Shown: piece after piece, positions 24,101 through 56,137 of the stretch | Layout: the number at the start of each line of letters is the position of its first letter | Numbering within the stretch: the first letter of the stretch is position 1 | Virus record (IMG/VR): IMGVR_UViG_3300011008_000050 | Source of the DNA: an uncultured virus (IMG/VR IMGVR_UViG_3300011008_000050) | Taxonomy: Duplodnaviria > Heunggongvirae > Uroviricota > Caudoviricetes | Length of the DNA stretch: 64,000 nucleotides | Strand: one strand, 5' to 3' | The notes under the pieces: model-generated | Told to the model about the DNA's origin: nothing | The model's database searches: none | The model's input: the letters and a program-made list of their open reading frames with translations, nothing else | Position numbers and translations under genes: made by a program

Positions 24101-24101
24101 C

Positions 24102-26712: not shown

Positions 26713-28860
26713 TTATATTGTTGCGGCAGATACCGCCTTTTTCCTTTTGTGGTTGACAGGTTGCCGTGGTTTCTTGATGATGCGAGGCAAGTCCATTTCG
26801 TGGTAGCATATCTGCATACCGATGGCACGTGTCATGAGTCGGTCATCGTGGTAGCCTTCCATCGCCTCAAATCCTCCTTTCTCATTCTCGATGTATGTAA
26901 GGTATTCATTGAGGCACTCTTCTTCACGTTCGACATAGAGGTGTTCACGTACAATGGCCTTCAGGTTGTGGATGATAACCTTCTTCGTGAGCGGGTTTGT
27001 GTGGAATCCGTATTTTCTTGGCACTCCCTCGCGTATGTCTTCCGCACTCTGCTTTCGTGCGTAGAGTTGATCACCGTAAACATCGTGGATGAGCGTAAGG
27101 ATATACTCAGCCTCGCCCTTTGTGTTGTTGGTTTCAAGGGTATTGCTCTCAATGACCAGCAGCGCATTGTTATAGTATGCCGCTACCTGTGCAGCCTTCC
27201 ATGCCAGTTTATCCATGTCGATGTGTCCGTGCCATTCAGCAATGACGGAAGGCGGTTCTGCATCCATCATATATATACGGTCAATGACAAGAATGTCTGC
27301 AAAGTCTGCTTTCTCTGTCTGTCCCTTGCATACATCGACAATGACGAGGTATCGGTCAATGACTTCTTCCTCTTCATCCTTTTCAACATCTTGCCACATC
27401 CAAAAGCGGCCGTTTTCCTCTTTTCTGAATCGTAGGTTTTGCAATGCCTCTTCGCCTTCGTCTGCACGACCGTATATTTCCCCCTTCCATTTAGGAGGCT
27501 TACAAGCGTGCCGGAACTGCTCCACATCTTCATTTGCAAACACCCTACGACCTGAGAATGTGAACGCCTCGATGTCGTTTGACGGGTATTCCGAAGCCAT
27601 GTCTGCATGAGACGAATACTTTGACCTCTCCTGAATGTACCAATTGATGGCCTCCAGTGTTGCGCCCTGCTGCCACAGGCTCCAAAGGTATGTACCCGGC
27701 TGTTCACGGTCAGAGTTTGCAACCTCGTTGTGACGGTTGTTGTAGAGCCAGGCAGCGAAGGCCTCAACGGGTGATAACCCGACGGGCAAACCGCCTGGCA
27801 CACTTTCCGCTGTGATGGGTGCTGCATACTGCTCAATCTCGTACCATGCAACGAACATTGCTTCAAACTGGCTCTTTCCCAGTTTTGCCGCAAGATATTC
27901 CTTATGGAAGAAGTTTCCTGTGCCGTTAGCCGTTGACTCATATACAATCATGGTGTAAGGCTTCAGGAGAATACCCGAACATGCGGAGCGCACAATCTGC
28001 TCAGGTGTCTTGCCGTCGGTCTTTTTCCATAGCCCGACCTCTGTGCAGTGTACCAGGTTGTAGTCACCACCACGGGCAGAGTCAGGCTTCTCGGCGGTTC
28101 CAATCTTGATTTTGCAATTTCGTTGTGGTATTCGGTGTATGTTTCCGCTGTTTCCAACCCCTACCAGTTTCGCCTCGTTCTCGTTGTATTCCTCCCCCAA
28201 CTTGTATAACATTTCGGTTGGGTATGCCTTAATCATGCGGTCGAACATGTCCTTTACCTCATTGGAGGCATCCTTGACGTGACCGACGATGAGGGAGTTG
28301 AGGCCGACTTTGTGTATGAGTTGCAGCCATGCCATGTAGATTTGCGTAGCCGTAGAGCCACCCCACTGACGAGCCTTTAGCAGAATAAGACGAATAGGCT
28401 TTCCGGCCAGCCTCATCTTCTCGAATCGTGCAATCAGCTTCCGTTGTGGCCTATTGAGCCGGAAATGCACATCTTCACCCCCTCCCTTGTTTTTAATGAA
28501 GACGTAGAGAGCCGCCCAAAAGGCAAAGTCGTATCTGCATCTGATACGCACAAGTTGCTCAACAACCTTGTGATGCTCTTCGTCTGTGACCTCTGCCCCC
28601 ATATCTTCCAGCCATTGGTCTATAGAACCAGCCTCTACGATTTGCCGCACCAACGGCACTTGCATCATTTGCTTTGGTATGTACTGAACAGGAAGGTTGA
28701 AGTCTGCTATTTCAATCTTCACCCTTTCTCCTATAGAGCCTTCTCCCGTGATGGGATTGAACTTGGCACATACCAGCGCATTGCGACGTTGGTTTTCGGC
28801 TATGATGTGTTTAATCTCGGCGGCAAAACCGCCAGACACACTACTTTCTACTGTTGACAT
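26713..28860 (-). CDS. terL: Terminase large subunit
   Basis: LKARQWGGST Walker A, HCTEVG Walker B variant, YESTANG motif III, nuclease domain VDV...D and HDDRLM. Confidence 0.92.
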   Translation of the reverse strand: MSTVESSVSGGFAAEIKHIIAENQRRNALVCAKFNPITGEGSIGERVKIEIADFNLPVQYIPKQMMQVPLVRQIVEAGSIDQWLEDMGAEVTDEEHHKVVEQLVRIRCRYDFAFWAALYVFIKNKGGGEDVHFRLNRPQRKLIARFEKMRLAGKPIRLILLKARQWGGSTATQIYMAWLQLIHKVGLNSLIVGHVKDASNEVKDMFDRMIKAYPTEMLYKLGEEYNENEAKLVGVGNSGNIHRIPQRNCKIKIGTAEKPDSARGGDYNLVHCTEVGLWKKTDGKTPEQIVRSACSGILLKPYTMIVYESTANGTGNFFHKEYLAAKLGKSQFEAMFVAWYEIEQYAAPITAESVPGGLPVGLSPVEAFAAWLYNNRHNEVANSDREQPGTYLWSLWQQGATLEAINWYIQERSKYSSHADMASEYPSNDIEAFTFSGRRVFANEDVEQFRHACKPPKWKGEIYGRADEGEEALQNLRFRKEENGRFWMWQDVEKDEEEEVIDRYLVIVDVCKGQTEKADFADILVIDRIYMMDAEPPSVIAEWHGHIDMDKLAWKAAQVAAYYNNALLVIESNTLETNNTKGEAEYILTLIHDVYGDQLYARKQSAEDIREGVPRKYGFHTNPLTKKVIIHNLKAIVREHLYVEREEECLNEYLTYIENEKGGFEAMEGYHDDRLMTRAIGMQICYHEMDLPRIIKKPRQPVNHKRKKAVSAATI

Positions 28861-29410
28861 GGTGAGCGGGGGAGTTGAGGAAGCCGACCAACAGCCCGGC
28901 AACGTAGCAGTAGATGTGTATGGTGTTATTGGGCGTGGCTATGGCATAGCCGCATACGGAACAGATGGGTGGCAGCGTGAATCCAATAGCGATGAAGGAT
29001 AATACCCATGTATGGAAAAGGCGTTTGTGTTTGACCTGAAATGCAATCTGCCCGAGCAGGGAGAAACAAACGGCAGAGAGGCCTACGGTGGGAACGTCGG
29101 CGACAAAACCGCCGAACACACTGCTGGTGGTGTCGATAGGGAAGGTGACGGCAGTGATGTAGGCAATGATGAGTGATGAGATGGAAATGTCGTAGATGAA
29201 GACGATGGAAAGCAGACACCAACAATTGATGAGTGCATGAGGCATGGATGCATGGAAGAAAGAATAGGTGAGCCGTGCAAATATGGGACAACCCTTATAG
29301 ATGGCGACATCAGCGAGTGGAAACCTCGCTGCCCACTGAACAGCCGAAAGCAAGAGGCAGATGACCGTCAGAATAAGTGTCGTAGTTTTCGTTTTCTTTC
29401 TTCGTACCAT
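28841..29410 (-). CDS. Rhomboid-family intramembrane serine protease
   Basis: Multiple TM segments; FFHA...HALIN, VGLS (GxS) and the late H in NNTIHIY. Confidence 0.7.
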   Translation of the reverse strand: MVRRKKTKTTTLILTVICLLLSAVQWAARFPLADVAIYKGCPIFARLTYSFFHASMPHALINCWCLLSIVFIYDISISSLIIAYITAVTFPIDTTSSVFGGFVADVPTVGLSAVCFSLLGQIAFQVKHKRLFHTWVLSFIAIGFTLPPICSVCGYAIATPNNTIHIYCYVAGLLVGFLNSPAHHVNSRK

Positions 29411-30862: not shown

Positions 30863-32620
30863 ATGAAGAAGATTTCAAATGCTTCTACATGGATGTTGAG
30901 CTTGCTGCTCACATTCATTGCGCTGATTAGTGGCGCATCATCGGGAGTTATGATGGCTGATGCCTCGAACCTCCCCGATGCAGGTAAAACGACAGGTGGC
31001 GATGGCGGTAATGCCGCACCTCCCACAGGTATTGCAACAGAGACGGCAGGTCGCCAGGATGGTGACCCTGATTTCTACACGAAGGACATCGACAAGCGTA
31101 TCATCAAGATTCGCCCGATGGCGACCCCTGTTGACCAGATTTCGCGTTATGCGAAGGCTCAGAGTTGCGACTCTTTCGAGGTGAAGTATTACAGCGTAGG
31201 CACCCGTCCTATCAGTTGTACTACTACACAGGCCATCAATGCACAGGTTTCAGGAGCGAGTGTAGAGTTACCAGTTGACGATGCCAATCTGTTCACGCTT
31301 GACGATACTATCCGCGTAGTCGGTGTTAAGGGTAAGTACAACGATAAGGGTGTAGCCTACGACCCTGACGATGAGAACACCCCCGACTTGGTTCTGTGTG
31401 TTTGCGGTCGTAATGACAGCACTTCCATGCCTGTAGTCTATGCCGTGAACGGCAACAAGGCAGCTGACGGTCAGACCATTTTCCTTCCCGCCATTCCACA
31501 GGGCACCCGTCTTGTCCGCATGGGTAAGGCTTGCGGTGAGTTGGACGTTCAGACAGGCCGCTTCAACAATATCCCGATGCCTGAGATTCAGTATTGTCAG
31601 AACTTCATGATTCAGGTTGAGCAATCGACGTTTGATAAGATTGCCGCCAAGGAAGTTGACTGGAGTTTCAGCGATATTGAGGAAGACGGTATCTATGACA
31701 TGCGACTGGCACAGGAGAACACCTTCATTTGGGGTGTGAAGAATGTCATCCGTCACACTACGAAGGATGGCATGAATACCTGGTTTACTGGTGGCATTTG
31801 GTGGATGGCCGGTAAGGACATCGAAGTTGGTGAATGGGATGCTAAGAAGCAGTGTGCCGTTATCAGCGACGAGAACCTTGTTGACATCAGTAAGGATTTG
31901 TTTGTCGGTACTGGCATTGGCAACAAGCGTAAGATTCTTCTTTGCGGTAGTGACCTGCTTGCCGCTTTCTCTAAGATTAAGAGTGAGAAGTTCCGTCTGA
32001 AGGACACTGTTGAGGTATGGAACCTGAAGTTCAAGAGTTGGGAGACAGACTTCGGTGAGATTCTGACGATTCATCATGAGTTGTTCGACCTGAACGGCAT
32101 GAGTGACTGCGGTTTCGCCATGGACCCCGAATACCTGACGAAGAAGACTCACGTAAGTTGGAGTCGCAACATTCTCGACTTGAAGAAGGCTGGTGTTCGC
32201 AACACCAATGCTGTGGTTATTCAGGAGGTTGTCTGCCTGTACCTGCGCTATGCGAAAGCACACGCAAGATTGCGCCTTGCCACGGCTTCAAGTGCCGAAG
32301 CTTCAGGGTCTAATGAGCAGACGCAGGAGCAGGCTCAGGAGCAGGCTCAGGAGCAGACGCAGCAGAAGGTTGCCACTCCTACATTCTCTCCGGCTGCATG
32401 GGCTGACGCTTCTGCCGACCAGGTTGTTGAACTGGCTTGCGATACTGATTCTGCCACTATCTACTACACTACGGATGGCAGCACACCTACCAGTGAATCT
32501 ACAGCCTACAATGCAACGAATAAGATTACGCTGAGCGCAACGACAACCATTAAGGCCATTGCCATGAAGGACGGCATGACTGATAGTGACGTAGCCAGCA
32601 AGACTTATACGAAAGCGTGA
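30863..32620 (+). CDS. Major capsid protein with N-terminal hydrophobic helix and C-terminal Ig/FN3-associated domain
   Basis: Position after scaffold; YCQNF...E..F.WG...TGGI core pattern; EQ(T/A)Q linker (32315-32362); VATPTFSP...IYYTTDGSTP...TTIKAIA FN3-associated motif. Confidence 0.75.
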   Translation: MKKISNASTWMLSLLLTFIALISGASSGVMMADASNLPDAGKTTGGDGGNAAPPTGIATETAGRQDGDPDFYTKDIDKRIIKIRPMATPVDQISRYAKAQSCDSFEVKYYSVGTRPISCTTTQAINAQVSGASVELPVDDANLFTLDDTIRVVGVKGKYNDKGVAYDPDDENTPDLVLCVCGRNDSTSMPVVYAVNGNKAADGQTIFLPAIPQGTRLVRMGKACGELDVQTGRFNNIPMPEIQYCQNFMIQVEQSTFDKIAAKEVDWSFSDIEEDGIYDMRLAQENTFIWGVKNVIRHTTKDGMNTWFTGGIWWMAGKDIEVGEWDAKKQCAVISDENLVDISKDLFVGTGIGNKRKILLCGSDLLAAFSKIKSEKFRLKDTVEVWNLKFKSWETDFGEILTIHHELFDLNGMSDCGFAMDPEYLTKKTHVSWSRNILDLKKAGVRNTNAVVIQEVVCLYLRYAKAHARLRLATASSAEASGSNEQTQEQAQEQAQEQTQQKVATPTFSPAAWADASADQVVELACDTDSATIYYTTDGSTPTSESTAYNATNKITLSATTTIKAIAMKDGMTDSDVASKTYTKA

Positions 32621-35196: not shown

Positions 35197-38100
35197 ATGG
35201 CAACAAAGAAGAAAAGAAAAATAAATCCTGACCTGAGTTATAATCCCATCTTGGATTATGAAACGGACTGGATGGAAGACCCCAGTAACGGGCATAAGCA
35301 GTTTGCCGGAGAAAGTGTGCAGAACTTTCTCAAAAGTGAGCTGAAGAAGGGTTTCGGCTATTCCCGCATGTCGGGCAATATGCTTCAACACTTCCATAGC
35401 ATTGATGATGCAGATGCCTACGACGGCGGTGATACTTCCAAGCTGCTTGACCAGACGGATATGTCGGGTAAGACCAATGTTCAGTTTAAGTTCCTTGAAA
35501 TCCCCATAGGCAGTAACGTCTATATCAATGGTTCCCGTCCATATATCTTCCCTTTGTATGTGAAGTCTGTGGAAGTGGACAACGAGGGGAACGAGACGCC
35601 TACAAGTTTCATGGTGACGCTGACCATCAACGTGACTCTGAACGGTCGCACCGTATCTACGCCCATCGGTTTGTTTGAACCGAACAAGGCCATAGAGGTG
35701 AATATCCGTCCCTATATCAGTGGCGGAGCCTCCTTCACCATCATGGCGAGCGATGACCAAGGCAACCGCCGCACGTCACAGCGTTACAATGTGGTGATGG
35801 CCTCGATGTATATGGAGCCAAGAAATAACACATGGTGGGCGAGTGCTTACAGGCAACCCGTCGGCGAAAGCGCCGGGCAAAGTACATGGAGTGTGCCTCT
35901 GAGTATTGAGGTGAACGTTGATTGTAGATTGAATGCCCGTCTTGTAAAGGATGGCACAACCTATGTGACGAAGACGGTCTTGCGTGAGAACATGCTGACC
36001 AACTATGACCTGACATTGGAGCACCCGATGGCGAGCGGTGGCACGGCTGGCGTGTATCAGCTCATCCTGGAACTGGTATGCACCGACGAGAGTCTGCAGA
36101 CTTCGGTGCCCACCCAGACGCTCACGTACAGTGTCTTTTGCGTAGGTTCGGAAGAGGCAGGAAGTTTCTTCCTTGCCAACAACAAGGCCGACAATCTGAC
36201 GAACTACACCAACAACCGCCTCTTTGATTATGCCGTCTTTGGCAATCATGCCACGCTTGACCTTTCTGCCATGGTTGGAGCTGTAAGTGTTCAGTCCACC
36301 GAAGATATTGAGCCGGACAGCGAGACGGTCTATTCATATTATGTTGAACTGGAGGTGGAACGCGCCGACACCAACGACTTCGAGCTTGACGTGTCAGCAT
36401 CTTTCAATGGCAGCGAAGTCCTCTCCGAGTCGTTTACGGTCAACAACAGTTCTGGCTATGCCGCCACTCCCGGCTCAGTTCTTTTTGTGAAGGCTGCAGG
36501 CCGTGACAACAGCGAGGCCAATAAGGATAAGCTCTTCAATATAGCCACTGGCAGCTATGTCACTCCAACGCTTGAAGGCATTTCCTTTAGCGCGTCAGAC
36601 GGTTGGAAGCGCAAGACGGTGACCGACATAGGCGGCAATGAGGTGGCGGTGTCCTTCTTCCGCATCCTTGGTGGCGGTCGTATGGAGCTTCCCGTGAAGC
36701 CACTCAAGATGAACGCTAACGAGGGCCGCACGGTTGAATTGATGTTCCAGCCTCGTAATGTTCTTAACGAGGACACGCCCATCATCACCTGTTTGACTCC
36801 CGTCGGTGGAACTGCCGGGCACCCTGAATCGTTTGTCGGTCTGAGGGTGACGAGCAGCAGAATCACGCTTCTGACAGCCAACAGTCAGGACGAGGATAAT
36901 CAGAGCAAAGCCTACGACGATGCCGAACCTATCCACATGGCCATCGTTGTTGCTCCTGGTTACAGCGAGGCCGGGGAGGCATACGATGCTTGTTTCATTT
37001 TCATCAACGGTGTGAAGCAGCGTGAGTTTGCCTACAACCGCGATTTGGATGTCAATGCCAACCTTGTCATTGACAATGCAGACGCAGATGTTGACTGGTA
37101 TGGCATCCGCACTTATGAATCGGCCTTGTCCACGGACGAGATTCAACAGAATGCCGCCAACTGGAAGATTTCTCTCTATGAAAAAGCGCAGTTCAAGTCT
37201 CAGTGTGACATCAAGGAAGCTGGCGTTGTTGACTTCAACAAGGTACGTGCGATATGCAATACTTTTGTGTGGAGAGCTGACGAGATACCCGCAGACGAAC
37301 CTATCACAAATACATTCCCTCACTTTGGCATGTCCGAGGGGCAGAAGATAGGCGGTGTCTTGAAGACCTACTGGCGTGACCATACAGATTGGAACAAGAC
37401 TCTTCACATGGACATCGAAGGCCAAGGTACGACTTCCATGGAATACTGGCGCTGGAATTTCAAGGGTTCTTCTGATGATCCCATCGACTTTGACGGTGGC
37501 ACCCATACCGCCATCAAAAAGTTGTGCGGCAAGAAGAACGTTGCAAGTTCTATGCAGAGTCACAAGATGGGTGGCTGTGAGGCTTTCGACTATCTGGCTC
37601 GTGCCACAGGTGCCGTTGAGCAGGATGCCGCTCGTCAGGCCATTTGGCAATATCCGTTTGTTGGCTTCGTGGAGGATGCAGACGGCAACAAGACGTTTAT
37701 CGGCCTCTACACAATTGGTCCAGACAAGGGTGACAAGGGAACTTTCGGGTTCGGGTCAAACACCATTGCTATGGAGGGACTGGATAATGACGTGCTGAGT
37801 GCCAACTTCCGTGTGCCTTGGAACGGCAGTACGGTCACCCCTGATAGCAGCAATAAGAAATATACCGTGTGTGGTGAGAAGTCTTGGGAAGACAGCATGA
37901 AGAATGCAGCTGGCGTGAACAGTCGTTGGAAACCTGCCTACAACCTGGTCTATGAGTGCTCTCAGCTCATCAAGCCCTGGAAGGGTGCCACAGTAGGGCA
38001 GACGGTCTATCCAGCCACGCAGCAAGGTCTGTTGGACCATGCCTCAACCATCACATCCATTGACACATCGACCGATGAGGGCAAGGCTCAGTACAAGGAA

Positions 38101-41100
38101 GCCACGTTGTATGAATACTGGATTACGTCTTCTGGCGATAGCGGCAATGCCTACAAGCTGTTTTTCTACAACCCTGCCACACATGAATACACTCAGAGCG
38201 AGACCACCGCAGCTGTCAACCTTTCCAGCCAGCTTTGCGGCCATGAGTACAAAGTTGGTGAAACGACCGACGGGGCAGTTACCACGCCTGTATATCTCAC
38301 CACGGAAGTGCTTGCAGCTGCGGCGGATGATGATGCAAGAAATGTGCTGTTCAAGAAAGCTCGTATCTCGAAGTTCAGAAAAGAGGCCTCAGCACATTTT
38401 GACATCGTCAATGCGTTTTTCCACCTTGGATGGGTAGAGTTTGATGCAGCAACGGACAACCTTGTGAAGAATACGTATCCTTATTTGCTGAATGTGCTGG
38501 ATGAGTTGATGAAGATTCGCTGGCGACAGGATGACGTTGATACGGTATTCCCCATCGAGAACCAAGGTAAGGACAAGAAGCCGTACTGCGTAGAGTTGGA
38601 AGATGACTATTCAGACTACGGCATGTCACCTTTGGCCGTGTTCAATGGCCGACGGTCTCAATTCTGGTTTACGCTGAAAGAAGCATTTGCCGACGAATAC
38701 GACACCTTCATGCGTGAGACCTTCATTCCCGCGCTGACAGGCTACCGTCCCGCCTTGGGTATTCTTGGCAGTGTGATGGCCTTCTTCCAGGACTTCTATT
38801 TCAGCCGTGCCCAGGAATATTTCGGTGCTGCCCTGTATAATGCCGATAGTACCTATTGCTATGAACAGGCTCACTTGGCCACAGGCTACACGACCCACCG
38901 CAACATTGCCCTGCAGCAGCTTCTTGGCGACCACTATTCTGCGGAGAAGCGTTGGATAAGGATGCGTGCCATCTACATGATGAGCAAGTACAAGGCTGGT
39001 CTCTTTGCTGCAGGAACGACAGCAGATGCCTTTGCCACTCGTGTAAGTTCTGGCCAGAACAGCTACACGTTGACTCCCGCCATCTACATGTATCCCAGCG
39101 TTGACTTCGGACAGACGGTGCATCGTGGTCCTCGTTTTTGGCCAGGCAGCAACGTGACAGCATGGACTACCCCCGTGTTCAGCTCTGATGGTGACCAGAC
39201 AATCCGTTTCCATGGCATGAGCTATCTGCGTGACGTTGGCAACCTGTATAACAATACCTTGAAGGATGCCATCACGGTGTATGCTCCCATGCTCAGCAAC
39301 CTTCTTCTCGGCAACAAGGATGCAGTGAGTGCCGTAGCTTCTAAGGGCATTTCTTCTATCCTCATCGACAGTGCATCGACGTTGCGTAAGATTGATTTGA
39401 GCCGTCTGGTTAACCTTGCCGGAACGGTTGACCTGTCTGCCTGTGTGAACCTGCGTGAGCTGTATATGGAGAATACCGCCATCACTCAGCTGAACATCAG
39501 CAACAGTGGTACGCTTGGCATCGTGAAGGCCAATAACAGCCGTCTGACGGCGTTTGCCCCTGCAGAGGGTGTGACATTGACGGCTGTGGAACTGCCGTCC
39601 ACACTCAGCACTCTGACGTTGAACAAGGCGAGGGTGAGTGCATTGACGATTGGTGACGGCACTGCTGCTGCGCATGCTCAGTTACGTCATGTGACGCTGC
39701 GTGACGTGACGGGCAGCTGGAGTGTCAAGACATTCGTCAACACATGGCTTGGCGCACTGACGGATGCAGAACTGGCCAGCTCATCCCTCGCGCTGACAGG
39801 TATCAACTGGACAGGCATGAGCGTAGCCCAGGTGTTGCAGATGGGCAAGGTGGGCACAAAAGACTACCAAGGCAAGGTCACGCTGTCAAGCATGACCCAA
39901 GCCGAGTATCAGCAACTTGTGTCATTATTTGGAGCGAGTGTCTTCAACGCTGGCAACGAGTTTGTGATTGATGCTCCTACAGGTGTAGCCATCGCATCGG
40001 ACAAAAGCCAGATAGAGCCTGAAGACACAGGTCTGGTGACCGCGACGCTGTTTCCTGTGACGGATGGTGCCACCATCGTCTTTCAACTTTATAAGGACGG
40101 CACGATGATTAACCCTGTGAACGGCATAGCCACGGTGGACGGTATCAGTCTTAACACGGCTACTGGTGCCATCACTACGACGAGTGCAGCGGGTGGCACG
40201 GTGAAGGTGAGGGCAGCGGCCACGGTAGGCGGCAATACCAGTTACAGCGACTATGTGACTATTTTGGTTGAGCCTTTGACCTATCCCTCATCCATCATCA
40301 TTACAGGTGCTGACAATGTTCAGGAGGCAGGTAGTTTCAACTACACCAAGGCATTTGACACGGATGACTTCACGGCAGAGGTGCTTGGTGTCGCGTGGAG
40401 CTTGAGCGGTGGCGGTGGTGTTGTTGCGATAACATCGCAACAAGCAGGACAGGCTACGCTTGCCGTGAGCGAGGTTACAGAAAACGAGGTAGAAGTGACA
40501 CTTACTTGCACTGCCACGTTGAGCAATAACCGCACCGTGACAGGCACAAAGAGCATCACGATTAAAGAGCCAAGTGCCAGTGGTGATTTCGTTGACCTCG
40601 GCTTGCCGTCAGGTGTGAAGTGGGCTACCTGTAATGTTGGTGCCACGAATCCCGAAGACCCCGGTCTATATTTCTCATGGGGTAACACCGAAGGCCATGC
40701 AGAGGGCAGTGGATATAACTTCGACAGCACTACATACAATGGTACTGCCGCAGCAAGTATTTCCGCCAACCTCTCCTTGTCACAGGATGCAGCCCGTGCA
40801 AACATGGGTGGCAACTGGCGTATGCCAACCAAGGAAGAAACCAAGGAATTGTACGACAACACCGATAGAGAATGGACTACCATCAATGGTATGAACGGCT
40901 GGAAGTTTATGAAGAAGTCTGATCATAGCGTCTTTATTTTCTTGCCTGCTGCTGGCTACTACAATGGTGCGTCGCTCTACTTTCGTGGTTCCTACGGGCG
41001 CTACTGGTCTGCCTCGTTCTACAATAGTTCCGGCGCCTACAACTTGTACTTCAATAGTTCGAATGTCAATCCGCAGAACATCGACAATCGGTACTATGGT

Positions 41101-41124
41101 TTCTCGGTTCGTGCTGTTCAGTAA
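35197..41124 (+). CDS. Large tail/receptor-binding protein, DGR target 1
   Basis: 1975 aa; LamG-like segment, CotH-kinase-like motifs (DNLVKN, DVDT), LRR-like repeats, Ig-like region, and a C-terminal VDLGLPSG..WA..NVGA...FLPAAG...GFSVRAVQ lectin-like domain carrying VR1. Confidence 0.8.
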   Translation: MATKKKRKINPDLSYNPILDYETDWMEDPSNGHKQFAGESVQNFLKSELKKGFGYSRMSGNMLQHFHSIDDADAYDGGDTSKLLDQTDMSGKTNVQFKFLEIPIGSNVYINGSRPYIFPLYVKSVEVDNEGNETPTSFMVTLTINVTLNGRTVSTPIGLFEPNKAIEVNIRPYISGGASFTIMASDDQGNRRTSQRYNVVMASMYMEPRNNTWWASAYRQPVGESAGQSTWSVPLSIEVNVDCRLNARLVKDGTTYVTKTVLRENMLTNYDLTLEHPMASGGTAGVYQLILELVCTDESLQTSVPTQTLTYSVFCVGSEEAGSFFLANNKADNLTNYTNNRLFDYAVFGNHATLDLSAMVGAVSVQSTEDIEPDSETVYSYYVELEVERADTNDFELDVSASFNGSEVLSESFTVNNSSGYAATPGSVLFVKAAGRDNSEANKDKLFNIATGSYVTPTLEGISFSASDGWKRKTVTDIGGNEVAVSFFRILGGGRMELPVKPLKMNANEGRTVELMFQPRNVLNEDTPIITCLTPVGGTAGHPESFVGLRVTSSRITLLTANSQDEDNQSKAYDDAEPIHMAIVVAPGYSEAGEAYDACFIFINGVKQREFAYNRDLDVNANLVIDNADADVDWYGIRTYESALSTDEIQQNAANWKISLYEKAQFKSQCDIKEAGVVDFNKVRAICNTFVWRADEIPADEPITNTFPHFGMSEGQKIGGVLKTYWRDHTDWNKTLHMDIEGQGTTSMEYWRWNFKGSSDDPIDFDGGTHTAIKKLCGKKNVASSMQSHKMGGCEAFDYLARATGAVEQDAARQAIWQYPFVGFVEDADGNKTFIGLYTIGPDKGDKGTFGFGSNTIAMEGLDNDVLSANFRVPWNGSTVTPDSSNKKYTVCGEKSWEDSMKNAAGVNSRWKPAYNLVYECSQLIKPWKGATVGQTVYPATQQGLLDHASTITSIDTSTDEGKAQYKEATLYEYWITSSGDSGNAYKLFFYNPATHEYTQSETTAAVNLSSQLCGHEYKVGETTDGAVTTPVYLTTEVLAAAADDDARNVLFKKARISKFRKEASAHFDIVNAFFHLGWVEFDAATDNLVKNTYPYLLNVLDELMKIRWRQDDVDTVFPIENQGKDKKPYCVELEDDYSDYGMSPLAVFNGRRSQFWFTLKEAFADEYDTFMRETFIPALTGYRPALGILGSVMAFFQDFYFSRAQEYFGAALYNADSTYCYEQAHLATGYTTHRNIALQQLLGDHYSAEKRWIRMRAIYMMSKYKAGLFAAGTTADAFATRVSSGQNSYTLTPAIYMYPSVDFGQTVHRGPRFWPGSNVTAWTTPVFSSDGDQTIRFHGMSYLRDVGNLYNNTLKDAITVYAPMLSNLLLGNKDAVSAVASKGISSILIDSASTLRKIDLSRLVNLAGTVDLSACVNLRELYMENTAITQLNISNSGTLGIVKANNSRLTAFAPAEGVTLTAVELPSTLSTLTLNKARVSALTIGDGTAAAHAQLRHVTLRDVTGSWSVKTFVNTWLGALTDAELASSSLALTGINWTGMSVAQVLQMGKVGTKDYQGKVTLSSMTQAEYQQLVSLFGASVFNAGNEFVIDAPTGVAIASDKSQIEPEDTGLVTATLFPVTDGATIVFQLYKDGTMINPVNGIATVDGISLNTATGAITTTSAAGGTVKVRAAATVGGNTSYSDYVTILVEPLTYPSSIIITGADNVQEAGSFNYTKAFDTDDFTAEVLGVAWSLSGGGGVVAITSQQAGQATLAVSEVTENEVEVTLTCTATLSNNRTVTGTKSITIKEPSASGDFVDLGLPSGVKWATCNVGATNPEDPGLYFSWGNTEGHAEGSGYNFDSTTYNGTAAASISANLSLSQDAARANMGGNWRMPTKEETKELYDNTDREWTTINGMNGWKFMKKSDHSVFIFLPAAGYYNGASLYFRGSYGRYWSASFYNSSGAYNLYFNSSNVNPQNIDNRYYGFSVRAVQ
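40936..41121 (+). repeat. DGR variable region VR1
   Basis: 186-bp ungapped match to TR; 15 mismatches, all at TR adenines. Confidence 0.97.
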
Positions 41125-41222
41125 CTTGTCTGTTCCCCATCAGAACGGACAACCATTCTTCTTCGCTCCCCAGCCACCGCCCTCCCCAAGAGGGCGAGGC
41201 GGGGATGCAAGAAGAATGAATC
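41122..41222 (+). promoter_or_regulatory. IMH-adjacent sequence plus DGR retrohoming hairpin (copy 1)
   Basis: Nested stem 41154-41218 (CATTCTTCTT...CGCCCTC-CCCAA-GAGGGCG...AAGAAGAATG), near-identical to the sequence after VR2. Confidence 0.8.
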
Positions 41223-41249: not shown

Positions 41250-41828
41250 ATGGCAAAGATTTCAGAAATACTGGAGATTGAGAAAGAAAGAACGGATGCC
41301 TCGACATGGAACGTGATTCATCTGTTCAAGGAAGGCGGTTTCTACCGTGCCTATAACTGGAGTGCCTGGCTGATTGTGACGGTGGCCTATTCTGACGATG
41401 TGAGGAAAGGTCAGAGCGACAGGAAGCCATTGAACGTGTCTCGCAAGAAGACCAAGAGCGGTGACAATGACTTTGCCTTTGTCGGTTTTCCGTTGAAGTC
41501 GATGGAGAAGTTCATCCCTTATCAGACGAGTTTCACCCCAGTGAATGACGGTCAGATAGACATCACGATTGAGTTGCCCGCCACCGAGACCCCCATTTCA
41601 TACGAGTTGCTTCAGCAATCCTTTGATGAATGGAAGCAGTCAATCGCCATTCAGGAAGACAAGCCAAAACGCGAAGGAGTATCACCCGATGAGGCCGTTC
41701 AAGCCTCTCCCCGTAGTATTACTCAGGTGATGCAGCAAGTATTGAGTTTTCCGTTGGAGTCGAGAACCCCGATGGAATGCATGTCGTTTATCAGCCTGTT
41801 GAAACAACAACTGGCTGCACTCTTTTGA
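41250..41828 (+). CDS. DGR accessory protein, MutS domain-I-like (MSL type)
   Basis: IHLFKEGGFYRAYNWSA resembles the MutS mismatch-binding motif; it sits between target and TR, where Avd normally lies. Confidence 0.7.
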   Translation: MAKISEILEIEKERTDASTWNVIHLFKEGGFYRAYNWSAWLIVTVAYSDDVRKGQSDRKPLNVSRKKTKSGDNDFAFVGFPLKSMEKFIPYQTSFTPVNDGQIDITIELPATETPISYELLQQSFDEWKQSIAIQEDKPKREGVSPDEAVQASPRSITQVMQQVLSFPLESRTPMECMSFISLLKQQLAALF

Positions 41829-42009: not shown

Positions 42010-42195
42010 ATTTTCTTGCCTGCTGCTGGCAACTACAATGGTACGTCGCTCAACAATCGTGGTTCCAACGGGAACTACTGGTCTGCCTCGTTCAACAATA
42101 GTTCCAACGCATACAACTTGAACTTCAATAGTTCGAATGTCAATCCGCAGAACAACAACAATCGGTACTATGGTTTCTCGGTTCGTGCTGTTCAG
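42010..42195 (+). ncRNA. DGR template repeat (TR)
   Basis: AAC/AAT-rich 186-bp copy of both VRs upstream of RT; followed by a divergent IMH*-like end and hairpin GTTGCGGC-AAT-GCCGCAAC (42215-42233). Confidence 0.97.
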
Positions 42196-42249: not shown

Positions 42250-43629
42250 ATGGGATATAAACTGACCCGGCAGGATTTGATGCGCGACTTGTATGTTGCT
42301 TTCTACGATGCGAGGAAGCACAAGGCGAGCATGTCCTACGTTGTTCAATTTGAGAAACACCTTCATCAGAACCTCGAAGAACTATGTGATGCCCTGCTTA
42401 ACAGAACGTATATTGCCCATCCATCCAAATGCTTCATCATTGATTATCCCAAGAAGCGGGAAGTATTTGCCGCAATGTTTGTAGATAGGATTGTGCATCA
42501 CCTATACTACAACTATACCAGCCAACTCTTTGAACGTACCTTTATACAGGACACCTACAGTTGCATCAAGGGCAGAGGCACCCACTATGGCATAGAACGT
42601 CTTGACAGCCATATCCGCAAGGAGAGTCAGAACTACACGGAAACGTGCTACGTTCTGAAACTTGACATCCGTGGTTACTTCATGCACATCAACAGGCAGC
42701 GGCTCTTAGACATAGCCACCCATTCGTTAGAGAAGATGAGTACCCACAAGGTGATGAATGGTAGCAGTGCCACATGGTCTGACGTGATAGACATGGACTT
42801 TGTTCTATGGCTGACCCGTGAGATTGTGACACTCGATCCGAAACTGAATTGTGAGATAGTAGGCTCATGGTCTAACTGGCTTGGCCTTGACAGGAGCAAG
42901 AGCCTTTTCTTCACAGAAGAAGGATGCGGTCTGCCCATTGGCAACCTTACCAGTCAATTGTTCAGCAACGTGTATCTGAACGTGTTCGACCAATATGTGA
43001 AGCGTGACCTTCGCTGCAAGCACTATGGGCGATATGTTGATGATGCTTACATCGTGAGTTGTGACAAGGACTGGATGCTGTCTCTTGTTCCTAAGATACG
43101 TCAGTTCCTGAAATCCGAACTTGGTCTTGATTTGCACATGGGCAAGTTGCACGTCTGCAACATAGAGCAGGGTGTTGAGTTCCTTGGTGCCTACATCAAG
43201 CCATACAGGATTTATGTGTCGAACCAGTCGCTTCGCAGAGTGAGGTCAAACATTGGTGAGATAGATTTTACAGACGCTGAAAAGGTGTTCAGGACGGTCA
43301 ATTCCTATCTCGGCATGATGATACACTATTCCTCCTTCAATTTGCGTCAAGAGTTGTTCATGCGCAATGAGTTCCTGCAAATTGCTCCATACGACAGTGA
43401 TATGTCGAAAATGAAGAAGTCAAACCCTTTAATTCACAGAGAACATGAACAGAACATTTGGAATCATATCCGACTACGCACCAGTGAGACAGGATGCGAG
43501 TCGCATCATCATCGGTTACGACTTACAAGCAGCCGACGAAGGACATTACACATGGAACGAGGTTTATTTCTACAAGAAGCAGACCCCGAATCCGAGTTTG
43601 GAACAAGTGAAAGAAGCCGTTGTGCGTGA
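42250..43629 (+). CDS. DGR reverse transcriptase
   Basis: PKKREVFAA, DRIVHH, LKLDIRGYF, GLPIGNLTSQLFSN, YGRYVDD and FLG motifs; start at ATG 42250. Confidence 0.95.
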   Translation: MGYKLTRQDLMRDLYVAFYDARKHKASMSYVVQFEKHLHQNLEELCDALLNRTYIAHPSKCFIIDYPKKREVFAAMFVDRIVHHLYYNYTSQLFERTFIQDTYSCIKGRGTHYGIERLDSHIRKESQNYTETCYVLKLDIRGYFMHINRQRLLDIATHSLEKMSTHKVMNGSSATWSDVIDMDFVLWLTREIVTLDPKLNCEIVGSWSNWLGLDRSKSLFFTEEGCGLPIGNLTSQLFSNVYLNVFDQYVKRDLRCKHYGRYVDDAYIVSCDKDWMLSLVPKIRQFLKSELGLDLHMGKLHVCNIEQGVEFLGAYIKPYRIYVSNQSLRRVRSNIGEIDFTDAEKVFRTVNSYLGMMIHYSSFNLRQELFMRNEFLQIAPYDSDMSKMKKSNPLIHREHEQNIWNHIRLRTSETGCESHHHRLRLTSSRRRTLHMERGLFLQEADPESEFGTSERSRCA

Positions 43630-43960
43630 CATCAACGAGGCCACGAAGCAGAAGATTATCGAGGGCTTTGTGTGGAACGGTCACAAGGTATGGCTATCCA
43701 GTGAGAACCAGTTCAACTACAAGTCAGCCTTTGACATGGCCGTTCAGACAGGTGGCGAGTCACTGCCTGAAACGTTCAAGTTTGGCACAGATGAAGTGCC
43801 GGAGTATGTTACTTTTGAGACGGTGAGCGAACTGCGCAACTTCTGGACTGCAGCCCGGAACCACATCAAGCAGACCATCACCAGCGGTTGGGCGCGTAAG
43901 GATGGCATTGACTGGAGTGAGTATGAGAGAGCATTAGAAAAATTGAAAATTGAGAATTGA
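43445..43960 (+). CDS. Tail-fibre-associated protein (DUF4376-like)
   Basis: GFVWNGHKVWLSSENQFNY...GW.RKD pattern. Confidence 0.6.
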   Translation: MNRTFGIISDYAPVRQDASRIIIGYDLQAADEGHYTWNEVYFYKKQTPNPSLEQVKEAVVRDINEATKQKIIEGFVWNGHKVWLSSENQFNYKSAFDMAVQTGGESLPETFKFGTDEVPEYVTFETVSELRNFWTAARNHIKQTITSGWARKDGIDWSEYERALEKLKIEN

Positions 43961-44015
43961 AAATTGAAAATTGAGAATTGAAAATTGAAAATTGAAAATT
44001 GAAAATTGAAAATTG
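43939..44015 (+). repeat. Tandem heptamer repeat A(A/G)AATTG x11
   Basis: Directly visible; spans the stop of 43445-43960 up to the holin start. Confidence 0.95.
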
Positions 44016-44018
44016 GCA

Positions 44019-44504
44019 ATGCTTACACGTTTCTTTGACAAGCTTACTCTCATCCTTCGGACTATAGAAGGATGGCTTATTGCTTTTTCCCTGATTATTG
44101 CCGACTATTTTGCTGGCCATAGTTTCGTCTGCTTTCTTGTTGCGTCGGTCACGCTGATGGATGCAGTCTTCGGCATTTGGGTTAGTCTTCGGCGTGGCCA
44201 GTTTGCCCTCTCGGAGCTGGCGCGGCTGACGATTGACAAAGTCACTGTCTATGGCTGTGCAATGTTCGTGTTCGTGGGGCTTGACCGCTTTGCGGGAACA
44301 ACTTTGACCGCTTCCCTTGTAGGTGCGGCCATCGTGCTGGTAGAGTTCTGGAGTAGTCTGGCCTCCATGATAATCCTGTATCCACACATTCCTCTGCTGA
44401 AGCTGCTGCGGAAGGCCATGACGGGCGAGATTGCATCAAAGCTGAAAATCAGCGAAGATGATGTGGAGGAAGTTCTTTACGGAAAGGAGGTAAGCCATGA
44501 GTGA
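44019..44504 (+). CDS. Holin-like membrane protein
   Basis: Several TM helices, D..FGI..S and VEFWS motifs; upstream of the endolysin. Confidence 0.7.
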   Translation: MLTRFFDKLTLILRTIEGWLIAFSLIIADYFAGHSFVCFLVASVTLMDAVFGIWVSLRRGQFALSELARLTIDKVTVYGCAMFVFVGLDRFAGTTLTASLVGAAIVLVEFWSSLASMIILYPHIPLLKLLRKAMTGEIASKLKISEDDVEEVLYGKEVSHE

Positions 44505-51998: not shown

Positions 51999-52276
51999 AG
52001 TTCTAACGGGGTTGTTATGACTTTTCTTAATTTATCAAATGCTTCTGTAATCTTTGGCTTGATTGCCAGTTCCAGTTTCGTTAACTCATTAAAGTCTATA
52101 TCTATACCGAGTTCTTCCGTATTACAAAGGACTTCACTGATAATTGCATGCTCTACTTCGCACTGTCCATATTCAAGCCATTCTGCACATTTTTTGCGAC
52201 GAGGCCAAAAGACACGGTTCCAAAACTTTTGCCATAACTCTTTTGGAGAGTAGAGGGTGATTGTGATTTTCTTCAT
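51995..52276 (-). CDS. Hypothetical protein
   Basis: 93 aa with 4-nt overlaps on both sides. Confidence 0.6.
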   Translation of the reverse strand: MKKITITLYSPKELWQKFWNRVFWPRRKKCAEWLEYGQCEVEHAIISEVLCNTEELGIDIDFNELTKLELAIKPKITEAFDKLRKVITTPLEL

Positions 52277-53220
52277 ACAAACATATTTGGGGTTACTTGA
52301 ATTTTCTGTTTAATAATTGGGAAATATTCAGGGTTGAGTTCAAAGCCTACGTAGTGACGTTGATACTGGAGTGCTACCATGACCGTTGTGCCAGTCCCCA
52401 TGAATGGATCGAGGATTATTCCACCCACAGGACAGCCAGCGAGAACGCAATCACGGATAAGCGCAGGGGGATAGGCGGCAAAGTGTACGTTAGAGCCTGA
52501 CGGTTTGGTATTCTGAATCCACACGTCACGTTTATTGACCAGTGACGACGTTGGGATGTTGTTGCCCTGAAAGGTTTTGTAGTTGTTGCCTGGCACATGA
52601 AAGTCCACCTTACGATGCTTCACTATCTTGGAACGTATCTTCGACCTTGCTGGTTGTTTGATGCTTTCTGAGTCGAAGTAGTAGCGATTGGATTTTGATA
52701 GCAAAAAGATGTATTCGTGTGATTTGGTGCAACGGTCACGGACACTTTCGGGCATTGCATTGGGCTTATACCAAACAATATCCTGACGGAGAAAGTAACC
52801 AAGAGAGCGCAGGGAGAAGGCCAGCATCCACGGTATGCCTATCAGGTCTTTATCCTTACATGATGTGATGTACTTATAGGCAGTACGGTTATTGAGAGTT
52901 CCACGATTGGAACCCTGCTTGTATTTCTTAGCGTTATCGGGATAGCGAGCTGCCCCTTTGTTGCTCCCTGCATAACTATCTCCAATGTTGAGCCACAAGG
53001 TGCCTTCGGGTTTTAGGACACGCAACACTTCGGCAAAGATTTCAGTGAGTCTTTCTATATATTCTTCAGGTGACCGCTCCAGTCCGATTTGCCCATCAAC
53101 ACCATAGTCCCGCAGACCGTAGTAAGGTGGTGACGTGATACAGCAGTCGATGCAGTCGGATGGCATGAGCCTCAGCCCTTCAAGACAATCCATGTTATAT
53201 GTGTTGTCAGGTTCTATCAT
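52273..53220 (-). CDS. DNA N4-C/N6-A methyltransferase (beta class), orphan
   Basis: TSPPYY catalytic motif, HFAAYP and LDPFMGTGTT SAM-binding motif. Confidence 0.9.
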   Translation of the reverse strand: MIEPDNTYNMDCLEGLRLMPSDCIDCCITSPPYYGLRDYGVDGQIGLERSPEEYIERLTEIFAEVLRVLKPEGTLWLNIGDSYAGSNKGAARYPDNAKKYKQGSNRGTLNNRTAYKYITSCKDKDLIGIPWMLAFSLRSLGYFLRQDIVWYKPNAMPESVRDRCTKSHEYIFLLSKSNRYYFDSESIKQPARSKIRSKIVKHRKVDFHVPGNNYKTFQGNNIPTSSLVNKRDVWIQNTKPSGSNVHFAAYPPALIRDCVLAGCPVGGIILDPFMGTGTTVMVALQYQRHYVGFELNPEYFPIIKQKIQVTPNMFV

Positions 53221-53357: not shown

Positions 53358-54083
53358 TTACAAATTAGGTAATTGTTTCCACTCCCTGCCATCGAGCAAA
53401 GAACCATTCTTGTATTTACTTCGCTTTACACCATCTTCGCCCCATGTACCCCATTGCTTGAAGAAGAAAGCCGTGTTGGTGTCAATGCAGCGGTCACGGA
53501 GTACACGAAACCAATCCGGGGACGGGCGACGGGCGCGGTTGCTACATTCTCCCCCCGTGATGAGCCAGTCGATGCCATCAAGCGTAATATCCCGCATATC
53601 TCCTAATAACGGTTCGCAACTGACAAAGCGGACGTTTGCGATGATGCGTTTCAGGTGGAAAATTCTTCCGTAGTGTTTGGCACTTTCGCAAGAGACCCCC
53701 AGCCATACGTTTTTAGGAACCTCGTACTCGTAGGTGAAGAACTCAGCCATCCTTTCAGCACGTTTCGTAAGAACCTGAAACGTGCATTGTGGGTTGTCCT
53801 GTATAGTCTCCATGACCTTTTTGATGAAGGAGAAGGGAACATCATCATGGAAGAGGTCGCTCATGGAGCAGACGAACACCATGCCATGCTTCCATTCGTA
53901 AGGTTCTTTGAGTGCTTCGTGGTGTATTGTCGGTATGAAGCCGTTGGCATACTTCTTTTGTCCCATGCCTTTCAGCCGCAAAGCCATTGTCTTAGCGTAG
54001 CAGTTGAAGCATCCTTCGCTTCTTGGTGTGCATCCCGTTACTGGGTTCCACACTCTTTCAGTCCATTCTATTTTTGTCGCCAT
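53358..54083 (-). CDS. Phage gp37/gp68-like (DUF5131) radical-SAM-like protein
   Basis: KIEWTE.VWNPVTGC...GC.NCYA, SMSDLFH and FFFKQWG motifs. Confidence 0.88.
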   Translation of the reverse strand: MATKIEWTERVWNPVTGCTPRSEGCFNCYAKTMALRLKGMGQKKYANGFIPTIHHEALKEPYEWKHGMVFVCSMSDLFHDDVPFSFIKKVMETIQDNPQCTFQVLTKRAERMAEFFTYEYEVPKNVWLGVSCESAKHYGRIFHLKRIIANVRFVSCEPLLGDMRDITLDGIDWLITGGECSNRARRPSPDWFRVLRDRCIDTNTAFFFKQWGTWGEDGVKRSKYKNGSLLDGREWKQLPNL

Positions 54084-54124: not shown

Positions 54125-54224
54125 GATTCATTCTTCTTGCATCCCCGCCTCGCCCTCTTGGGGAGGGCGGTGGCTGGGGAGCGAAGAAGAATGGTGTCCG
54201 TTCTGATGGGGAACAGACAAGTTA
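54125..54224 (-). promoter_or_regulatory. IMH-adjacent sequence plus DGR retrohoming hairpin (copy 2)
   Basis: Reverse complement matches 41122-41222 except for a 1-nt indel. Confidence 0.85.
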
Positions 54225-54818
54225 CTGAACAGCACGAACCGAGAAACCATAGTACCGAGTGTCGTAGATCTGCGGACTGACATTCGAACTATAGAAGTAC
54301 AAGTAGTATGCGCCGGAACTACCGCGGAACGAGGCAGACCAGTAGCTCCCGAGGGAACCACGACTGTAGAGCGACGTACCATAGTAGTAGCCAGCAGCAG
54401 GCAAGAAAATAGAATTGCCGTTAATCTTAGAGGTGAATAGACAGCCCTTCTTTCCCTTCACATCGACCCAACTACGTTTGCAGTTGTCGTAAAGTTCTTG
54501 GAAGTCTTCTTTCGTAGGCATGTGCCAGTCGCCACCAAGCATAGCGTGAGCGGCATCGTGTTCAAGCGGCAGATCAGTATCTATCTTCGATGCTGGTCTA
54601 TCTTCGTAGTCTGACCGATAGAATGTGTCATCACTACCATCCTCATGCCCCTCAGTGTCACCCCATGCGAAATAGAGTCCGCTTTCGTTAGGAGTGTTGG
54701 CTCCAAGATTCATATTTGCCCATTTACGTCCAGATGGCAAGCCAAGGTCAACGGCTTCGAGTGACGGGGTGGCGGTGTGCACCCTTGCTTCTTGGTTTTC
54801 TGAAAGTTCTTGTTTCAT
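54222..54818 (-). CDS. Standalone lectin-like domain protein, remote DGR target 2
   Basis: VDLGLPSGRKWANMNLGA...FLPAAG...GFSVRAVQ; paralog of the tail protein C-terminal domain. Confidence 0.9.
   Translation of the reverse strand: MKQELSENQEARVHTATPSLEAVDLGLPSGRKWANMNLGANTPNESGLYFAWGDTEGHEDGSDDTFYRSDYEDRPASKIDTDLPLEHDAAHAMLGGDWHMPTKEDFQELYDNCKRSWVDVKGKKGCLFTSKINGNSIFLPAAGYYYGTSLYSRGSLGSYWSASFRGSSGAYYLYFYSSNVSPQIYDTRYYGFSVRAVQ
54225..54410 (-). repeat. DGR variable region VR2
   Basis: 186-bp ungapped match to TR; 21 mismatches, all at TR adenines. Confidence 0.97.
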
Positions 54819-54834
54819 AATGATTTTACAGGTG

Positions 54835-55683
54835 TTAATGGTGGCTGTTGTCAGTCACAGGTGAAACTTGTTTTGTTTTTGTTGTAGGTGGTGGTACGGC
54901 TTCTGCAACTCGTTTTTCGTATTCCTTTTCCCAAGCTTTCCTTTCGAGTTCACGCTGGATGGCTTCTTCTTCAAGTCTGGCTTTTTGTGGATTGAGACGC
55001 TGTTCGTGCTCTTTCCATTTTTTGAGTGCGACGGTGAAGTACTTCCATTTTTTGCGGAAGGGTTCGTTGGCTGCGATTTCGAGACAGGCTTGTTCGAGGC
55101 GGCGCAGGGTGCCATAGAGACACTTGATTTCCGTCCATCCATCTTCGCTGGGTGGTCTCATACGGGTGAGTTCCGGCGCGTTCTTTTGCAGCCAGCCTTC
55201 AAAGTCGCTGTAGGTGAGCTTGGTTTTGCCTTTTGTGGCTGGTTTTGGAGTCTCGCATGGCGGCACAGCATCAGCGTCAGAGGTGTCGCAGGGCGGTGCC
55301 TGGGTGTCTGTATTGGTGCTGGTCTGTTTGCGGCTGTTTGCGGTGGCTTCACCTCCTCTTCTTCCTGCCTCCGCCCTTGTCTTGCTAATAGATTCCCTTT
55401 TACCCATTCTTTCGAGGAACGACTTGGAGTAGAAGAACTTATTGTCTTCAGTAAATTCAAATAACCCATAGTTCTCGACAACGGATTTTACGAGTGCAGC
55501 GTCTTCACGTAGGTCAAAGGCTATCAAGTTGTAATCTTTGGCACACATGTAGTCGTTTTCTTCGCGCATTCTTTCGAGTATCATGAAGTAAACTCCATAT
55601 CCTGCTGATTTGTGTTGCATTCGCAAGCGTATGAGCTTTTCATCGTTTCGCGCGTTGCTGTCGTGTGGGAAGTAGTTATGCAT
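54835..55683 (-). CDS. Putative replication initiator (DUF4373/Lin1244-like N-terminus)
   Basis: YFPHDSNARNDEKL...GYGVYFMILE motif. Confidence 0.75.
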   Translation of the reverse strand: MHNYFPHDSNARNDEKLIRLRMQHKSAGYGVYFMILERMREENDYMCAKDYNLIAFDLREDAALVKSVVENYGLFEFTEDNKFFYSKSFLERMGKRESISKTRAEAGRRGGEATANSRKQTSTNTDTQAPPCDTSDADAVPPCETPKPATKGKTKLTYSDFEGWLQKNAPELTRMRPPSEDGWTEIKCLYGTLRRLEQACLEIAANEPFRKKWKYFTVALKKWKEHEQRLNPQKARLEEEAIQRELERKAWEKEYEKRVAEAVPPPTTKTKQVSPVTDNSHH

Positions 55684-55696
55684 GGCTTTAGGGTTT

Positions 55697-56137
55697 TTAT
55701 TTGGAATTGCCAGGGAGGTGGGAATCGGATAGATAGTTGTTGATTTCGCGCATGAAGTCGTAGAGTGAGCGGCATACGACGTATTTGTAGCCGTCTTGCT
55801 CGATGAGTCGTTGCCAGGAGCGTTGCGTGTCGGCCTGGCGACCCGTGCGTGTCTTCATTTCGATGAGGAGTGCGCCGTGATGTGCGTTGGGCTTGAGCAG
55901 GATGAGGTCTGCGACTCCGGGGAGTACGCCTTCTGCCTTCATCTTGGCAGCAGTCACCTTGTCACGATGGCCACCGTTTGGGACGGCGAAGAGGTTGTGG
56001 CGGCAGTGTGGGTATTGATAGCGGAACCACTGGAGGCAAGCGCACTGGATGCGGTGCTCTTCATCGTCAGGACGCTTGCGCGACTTTGTTCTTTGTCGCG
56101 CAAGCATCTGTTCAAAGGTTTGTCGGAGATTGCTCAT
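55697..56137 (-). CDS. VRR-NUC nuclease
   Basis: EH.IQ, AVPNGG, GVADL, IEMK and Q..WQ motifs. Confidence 0.85.
   Translation of the reverse strand: MSNLRQTFEQMLARQRTKSRKRPDDEEHRIQCACLQWFRYQYPHCRHNLFAVPNGGHRDKVTAAKMKAEGVLPGVADLILLKPNAHHGALLIEMKTRTGRQADTQRSWQRLIEQDGYKYVVCRSLYDFMREINNYLSDSHLPGNSK

Follow-up and report, generated by a model that had tools for sequence, protein, structure and literature searches.

Why should a tailed phage keep a second DGR target among its replication genes, on the opposite strand and far from the template, and what might the encoded protein do there? The question is raised by a 64,000-nt stretch of DNA from an uncultured virus (IMG/VR record IMGVR_UViG_3300011008_000050), hereafter the window. 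The window contains most of a phage of Bacteroidales type, which is called temperate on the strength of an integrase gene. Its genes include: a P22-like portal; a terminase; a capsid protein with a match of the SU10 type; a 1975-aa tail-region protein; a reverse transcriptase (RT); and a lysin. An opposite-strand arm carries RecT-like, helicase, HU, VRR-NUC, initiator, DUF5131 and methylase genes. The nearest cultured relatives are the Bacteroides phages BS-TP4 and BKO1-TP3 (capsid 74% identical), and the sequencing runs in which the locus occurs are labelled, where a habitat is given, as gut, bovine-gut or goat-gut.

Several other features of the window can be recorded here. A 6433-aa open reading frame (4799-24100) precedes the portal gene. 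The terminase gene (26713-28902) sits among the structural genes in the opposite orientation, as it does in BS-TP4 and BKO1-TP3, where its counterpart is annotated 'tail spike protein', and the capsid protein (30863-32620) has a C-terminal Fn3-associated/CHB_HEX_C domain. Two families of dispersed repeats are also present. The first comprises about 20 hairpin copies between 6800 and 60800 with the core GGCA[A/G]AACC inside a palindrome (for example at 24101, 30748, 30782, 32626, 34681, 35111, 47595, 50932, 58558 and 60742); these often lie where genes end and as tandem pairs of 34 nt, and are strongly strand-biased even within the minus-strand arm (24 plus-strand cores, 14 with a paired stem, versus three minus-strand cores, none with one). 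In the second, an ATAC(G/T)GAACA-like tail comes after a short palindrome (26122, 26683, 28935, 41830, 48366, 57567 and 63018), with one copy between the accessory gene and the template repeat (TR) of the DGR cassette.

The cassette itself lies on the plus strand. The TR (42010-42195) is 186 nt long and contains 48 A, 47 of them at codon positions 1-2. The RT (42250-43629) is encoded in an open frame that begins 54 nt past the TR, and contains the GxxxSQ and YVDD motifs and an RVT_1 match (E 7e-14). This frame overlaps a DUF4376 gene by 185 nt (43445-43629). DUF4376 comes after the RT in most related cassettes, and the RT in most relatives ends at or before the DUF4376 start, with a few overlapping by 110-272 nt. 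Tandem repeats of 7 nt (AAAATTG type; 43925-44027) separate DUF4376 from a possible holin gene. Upstream of the TR is an accessory gene (41250-41828, plus strand) that occupies the same place in relatives and encodes an acidic protein (pI 5.2), possibly of the MSL type in view of a weak MutS_I match (E 0.14). A family scan of this gene gave no Avd match; since Avd is present in 74% of DGRs according to the portions of the Wu et al. survey available to us (PMC5758913), it is not required for a DGR. This gene, which looks more like MutS_I than Avd, is kept ahead of the TR and RT in dozens of relatives, none with a recognised Avd, and MSL genes are reported solely alongside avd in the same portions of that survey (PMC5758913). 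The cassette target is the 1975-aa protein (35197-41124, plus strand), whose presumed tail role is suggested by its position and size and which ends in a C-type-lectin-fold (CLec) domain. Its VR1 (40936-41121, plus strand) differs from the TR at 15 positions, all 15 of them A, and is followed by the stop codon, a presumed IMH and hairpins (41122-41222, plus strand).

The second target gene (54222-54818, minus strand) lies where the original prediction had placed it, between the replication initiator and a DUF5131 gene, with a gap of 12,029 nt from TR to VR2. It encodes a standalone CLec protein of 198 aa, assigned to PF26707/DUF8237 on the record and with weak matches to Fib_succ_major and Lcl_C. 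VR2 (54225-54410, minus strand) encodes the last 62 residues. All 21 of its mismatches to the TR fall at A (9 A>T, 9 A>G and 3 A>C), as had been claimed, and the chance of such a pattern is 8e-15. With A-only mismatches in both VRs, the proposal that one TR serves a tail-side and a remote standalone target is supported. VR1 and VR2 differ from each other at 19 nt; 10 sites are altered in both, seven to the same base, which is the highest count but near the range of three to six found in five VR pairs of relatives. This pattern fits separate homing events with common site preferences and thus favours the independent diversification originally suggested. Some shared history of the two VRs is possible because recent exchange between them is evident from their near-identical flanks.

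The flanks in question begin at the stop codon. The element at 54125-54224 (minus strand) contains the stop codon, the presumed IMH and two predicted DNA hairpins, and is a copy of the VR1 3' element minus one base. The predicted match of roughly 100 bp after the two stop codons was recovered as about 98 nt that are identical but for one base, with the same two hairpins predicted at both sites (fold energies of -32.7 kcal/mol for VR2 and -33.6 for VR1). The VRs and the TR part right after the last codon, where IMH differs from IMH*, and both VRs then continue into the predicted hairpins. By analogy with BPP-1, the 3' element is inferred to act as an IMH: IMH and hairpin would make VR2 a landing site on either strand, and TR RNA and RT would act on it in trans. 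In BPP-1 an IMH together with a hairpin is enough to turn a gene into a target, in a manner that is orientation-independent and transplantable, as described in the part of PMC3240598 that we consulted, and DGR components are able to act in trans (PMC5758913, in part). The distance and strand of VR2 therefore need no new mechanism, and we consider it virtually certain that 54222-54818 is a genuine DGR target.

The neighbours of the gene suggest when it is expressed. Upstream is the initiator (54835-55683, minus strand; Lin1244_N, phrog_2562), a place taken by other DNA in relatives. Downstream is the DUF5131 gene (53358-54083, minus strand), which also comes after the remote target in the related locus L033 and in G017, where the join of the record lies between the two. 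An N6/N4 DNA methyltransferase (52273-53220, minus strand) belongs to the same gene run, 1 kb downstream. The target gene begins 16 nt past the initiator stop codon and has an A-rich start context resembling those of its neighbours, which together suggest transcription along with the early arm. Promoter and terminator scans gave counts at chance level (13 versus 12.5 and 25 versus 20.4, respectively) with a model that is ill-suited to Bacteroidetes.

The locus recurs in other sequencing runs. G001 carries the same VR1 and VR2, and both it and run X1 match the window and may be the window's own source; the X1 contigs end at the 3' repeat common to VR1 and VR2. Three runs from three other studies (X4, X5 and X7) contain the same neighbourhood as the window's remote target, and one X5 contig spans from DUF5131 into the VR end. 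An assembly artefact is unlikely, since the order DUF5131-hairpin-VR-core is kept in contigs of other studies and the layout is common to relatives with unlike flanks. One X7 contig contains the VR and core up to 54758 and rejoins the window at 55731, with 1627 other letters replacing 972, which implies that relatives have the same target body with a different leader and with the initiator gene replaced by other DNA. The X4/X5 loose end at 54758 resembles, by eye, the linker of a 235-aa type of homolog (P0002). Within runs, variation was read from assembled contigs: X1 lists no VR2 variant, and short variants in X4 and X5 are unassignable among VR1, VR2 and TR.

Among relatives, variation is concentrated in the VR. 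Core identity is 95-100% in the 11 of 13 close orthologs that could be scored (the two with an insertion were left out), while VR identity is only 65-81% across all 13. The core substitutions listed for the three other studies are all synonymous (6/6). In seven of the 13 orthologs every VR residue can be reached from the window's TR by A-to-N change, and in the other six between one and six residues cannot. Four more distant orthologs (core 71-74%) show five exceptions relative to the window's TR and none when the TR is taken from L014, which is closely related to the phage. This comparison, made without placing the four orthologs in the L014 genome, suggests that the remote VR follows the resident template.

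The survey of relatives also bears on placement. Nine other loci or records were examined for TR-VR pairs, and seven of them contain a remote, adenine-mutated VR, a proportion that is not a frequency because the records were chosen for a visible second domain. Five are on the opposite strand (L033, with 26 A changed; G027, 15; G017, 16; L171, 16; and G005, 22) and two on the same strand (L054, 13; and G023, 21), with zero to two non-A mismatches in each. In L014 the test was confined to regions outside its early arm, and in L258 the extra targets adjoin the cassette rather than being remote. When 26 records were searched whole, four contained a cassette and a remote domain, two a standalone domain only and 20 a cassette only; a second full domain occurs in two of the nine records that are at least 90% complete. 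Judged from these genomes, the remote target gene is dispensable and accessory. Outside L005, whose adjoining genes could not be named, the genes near standalone copies include those for helicase, RecT, exonuclease, sliding clamp, methylases and DUF5131. VR1 and VR2 no longer have matching 3' flanks in L033, L097, G017 and G027; VR2 still tracks the TR in the first three of these, and the VR2 flanks of L033, G027 and G017 are alike among themselves, even with unlike TRs. Two side observations concern individual relatives. L054 and L121 (about 11510-12850) have an RT spread over three frames, which recalls the frameshifted RT of Quimbyvirus, within a DGR that has a remote target as well. L190 (9803-10567 in contig C1 of G022) is a standalone target of the same lineage and a possible orphan, with no TR or RT match in the roughly 75 kb read around it.

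The predicted structure of the 198-aa protein is that of a single CLec domain. A model built from 116 sequences, which supersedes an earlier one from 28 sequences (pLDDT 58), has a pLDDT of 92, with residues 1-16 below 50 and the remainder forming one domain. Most of the structural matches listed have a CLec fold, among them Lcl (Z 7.8, rmsd 3.0, 103 aligned), TvpA (6.8), Mtd (6.6) and TaqVP (6.1), the last three being DGR targets and all the matches listed being below Z 8. Foldseek returned nothing at E<=0.001, a sequence search of the PDB nothing under E 0.2, and an Atlas search with the protein only hypothetical or DUF8237 clusters. The original prediction of a protein with neither signal peptide nor fibre shaft agrees with the model and with hydropathy: there is no hydrophobic leader (best 10-residue hydropathy 0.76), nothing beyond the one domain after residue 16, and no membrane anchor or effector domain. 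Because the leaderless 198-aa form folds confidently, it should make a simple bait.

The N terminus is the changeable part. The first 20 codons (54759-54818, minus strand) are exchangeable, as relatives diverge at 54758 and carry another leader. Of the best 120 homologs, 53 have a short helical motif as their leader, 36 a leader of less than 25 aa, 11 a Cys-rich one, one a different small phage domain and 19 a leader of some other kind; none of these leaders is strongly hydrophobic (maximum 1.63), and an Atlas search with the Cys-rich leader gave no usable match. Across these homologs the CLec body is the constant unit and the leaders swap, and the window's copy, which does not have the helical leader, could be a reduced version. 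Composition differs as well. In 16 standalone versus 65 cassette rows the cores contain 17 versus 13% D/E, 9 versus 6% K/R and 35 versus 44% S/T/N/G/A, a contrast to be taken as one lineage difference and not 81 tests because the rows are related; net charge is alike (-9.1 versus -9.0). The standalone composition suits a cytoplasmic protein.

Where, then, did the protein come from? The original prediction described it as a standalone paralog of the tail C-terminal domain with diverged upstream coding parts. The divergence is evident, with 56 of 117 core residues identical to the window's own tail domain, and the standalone CLec domain is as described; the derivation from that tail domain did not survive phylogenetic analysis. 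A tree was built from the non-VR core, with 82 rows and 124 columns, and in it a 100/99 branch separates 13 standalone targets plus nine database homologs from all 60 cassette-adjacent targets. Grouping the remote target with the tail domain of its own phage, as a recent duplication would imply, was rejected (AU p 7.8e-6) in a test run after the tree was seen, with the grouping taken from the earlier claim. All rows were found with the remote target protein, its alignments or the RT, and the standalone and cassette labels are a reading of context, which is thin for L007, L008 and L137. On this tree the remote target falls in a distinct lineage made up of standalone targets and did not arise by recent copying of the tail domain; other origins are possible for some standalone targets because L005, L054 and L299, with under 100 core residues aligned, were left out. 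The nearest named homologs are in Prevotella and Bacteroidaceae bins. In the 201 genomes of G022's genus there was no close ortholog (23 had matches at E<=1e-40), so the host is not fixed. Scans of viral contigs with one protein at a time gave one and two distant loci, and tblastn of a phage collection gave only matches of 33-34%, in seven records.

We therefore come to the function of the protein. Its position and anatomy indicate that it is probably a cytoplasmic protein and not part of the virion. The reading that we prefer, with a probability of about one half, is that the gene is accessory and encodes an early variable binder directed, in the cytoplasm, against variable defence proteins of the host. 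The gene would be transcribed with the early initiator-DUF5131-methylase run, and its product would stay in the cytoplasm and present a variable binding face; variants arising in one cycle would be packaged, and then tested at the next infection or induction. The most likely ligand would be a variable host defence protein, blocked alongside the action of the neighbouring methylases. That counter-defence as such is its job is a serious possibility, if a little short of an even bet; the nearby methylases say little on defence because they are ordinary residents of early arms. A broader idea, which we put forward tentatively, is that Bacteroidales phages have a dedicated and old family of intracellular antibody-like proteins encoded in the early arm, in which a portable CLec body with swappable leaders is re-adopted by any resident DGR through overwriting of the VR, and is selected against host defence proteins. 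If true, the system would be an adaptive counter-defence repertoire and not a host-range device.

Other roles would account for parts of these data. It is unlikely that the protein is a host-adaptation factor, whose variable face binds a replisome or regulatory protein of the host and so makes several Bacteroidales hosts usable. The gene directly follows the initiator, at a place where BS-TP4 has an annotated DnaC-like loader, and sliding-clamp genes adjoin the remote target in L012 and L020; yet the target is absent from close relatives, BKO1-TP3 has a methylase at that place, the immediate neighbours of the target vary, and its body is kept while the initiator region is swapped. We give a little less credence to a factor, produced either by the prophage or at an early stage of infection, that binds proteins of competing phages in exclusion or defence. 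Bacterial DGRs have been implicated in anti-phage defence, in the passages available to us of PMC12629997. The phage is temperate by its integrase, and a variable binder would suit variable viral targets, but the protein has no membrane anchor or effector domain and its gene sits inside the replication gene run. Such a run is usually repressed in lysogens.

Less probable again is an alternative tip or decoration on the virion, or a soluble decoy freed at lysis, that binds surface glycans or proteins. The protein has its fold and TR in common with the tail target, the cassette target of many relatives is a protein of its own of about 310 aa, and both targets of the Bacuni phages are read as adhesion proteins in the part of PMC8143477 that we saw. 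Against this, the strand is opposite to that of the structural genes, the standalone targets have their own lineage and composition, and near-identical bodies carry N termini of 9-60 aa of unrelated types. The swap-in tip of the original prediction also fares poorly: the window's tail CLec domain is covalently fused into the 1975-aa chain, and the N terminus that would dock is exchanged or missing in near-identical relatives. Least probable is a passenger or sequence reservoir, mutated because it offers a valid landing site and at most a gene-conversion donor for VR1, as the near-identical 3' flanks (implying recent exchange), the seven same-base changes and the TR-less copy in L190 might suggest, because a silent donor would need neither a conserved non-VR core with synonymous changes nor a long-lived clade, and VR2 tracks the TR in L033, L097 and G017 in spite of their diverged flanks. 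VR1 and VR2 form inverted repeats of about 290 nt, and the phage has RecT-like and exonuclease genes; a regular inversion of the 13 kb between them was considered, and would leave the lysis genes behind the early genes.

An early, cytoplasmic binder of host defence proteins, our preferred reading, can be compared with systems already described. A distal second target is a published layout for gut phages (PMC8008677, PMC8143477 and PMC12629997). In Quimbyvirus a single TR goes with two CLec targets; the first follows the tail genes, and the second is distal, opposite in strand and near methyltransferases, and was proposed to be a non-structural protein in phage-host conflict (Benler et al. 2021; PMC8008677, in part). 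The window resembles it in layout, with a distal, opposite-strand second target and a methylase 1 kb downstream. Unlike Quimbyvirus, as far as its description was accessible, the window's phage belongs to another group, with a P22-like portal, an SU10-type capsid match and a one-frame RT, whereas the Quimbyvirus RT is frameshifted. Four gut prophage species likewise have a second VR far from the RT cassette, with DNA methyltransferases nearby, which was taken to indicate counter-defence (Dahlman et al. 2025; PMC12629997, in part); the likeness is again to a described layout, and those prophages are human-gut isolates. The Bacuni phages F1, F2 and F4 have two DUF1566/Fib_succ_major targets, the adjacent ORF 22 and the distant ORF 43, and F1 and F2 have a common host despite 15-16 site differences in the secondary VR (Hedzet et al. 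2021; PMC8143477, in part); they differ from the window's phage as 40-kb siphoviruses with Avd. More generally, non-adjacent targets occur in 45 of 372 DGRs, and phage DGRs of this kind typically combine an adjacent target with another no more than 50 kb away (Wu et al. 2018; PMC5758913); the portions of that survey at hand contain no functional or phylogenetic treatment of early-arm targets. The excerpts seen of PMC10743442 describe two-target DGRs of a different layout, and those of PMC11054128 and of the Roux preprint add nothing on remote phage targets.

The cultured relatives BS-TP4 (PQ571277) and BKO1-TP3 (PQ571269), described in PMC12694917 (seen in part), share with the window the gene order, the inverted terminase and a large tail-region gene, as well as RT, DUF4376, lysin and an opposite-strand early arm. 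Their RTs are distant from that of the window (23% for BS-TP4). BS-TP4 has one TR-VR pair in the 44 of 64 kb read; BKO1-TP3 (L301, PQ571269.1) has an RT after the large tail-region gene and no TR-VR repeat of at least 70 nt in the 40 of 65 kb read; and neither has a remote VR in these stretches. In the parts available of the literature searched, including PMC8008677, PMC8143477 and PMC12629997, we found no functional study of distal targets and no report of a separate lineage, leader swapping or template tracking. To the layout known from gut phages, our analysis thus adds a separate lineage of standalone targets, exchangeable leaders, and VRs that track the resident TR; the remote targets sampled form a conserved lineage of their own and are not fresh duplicates of tail domains.
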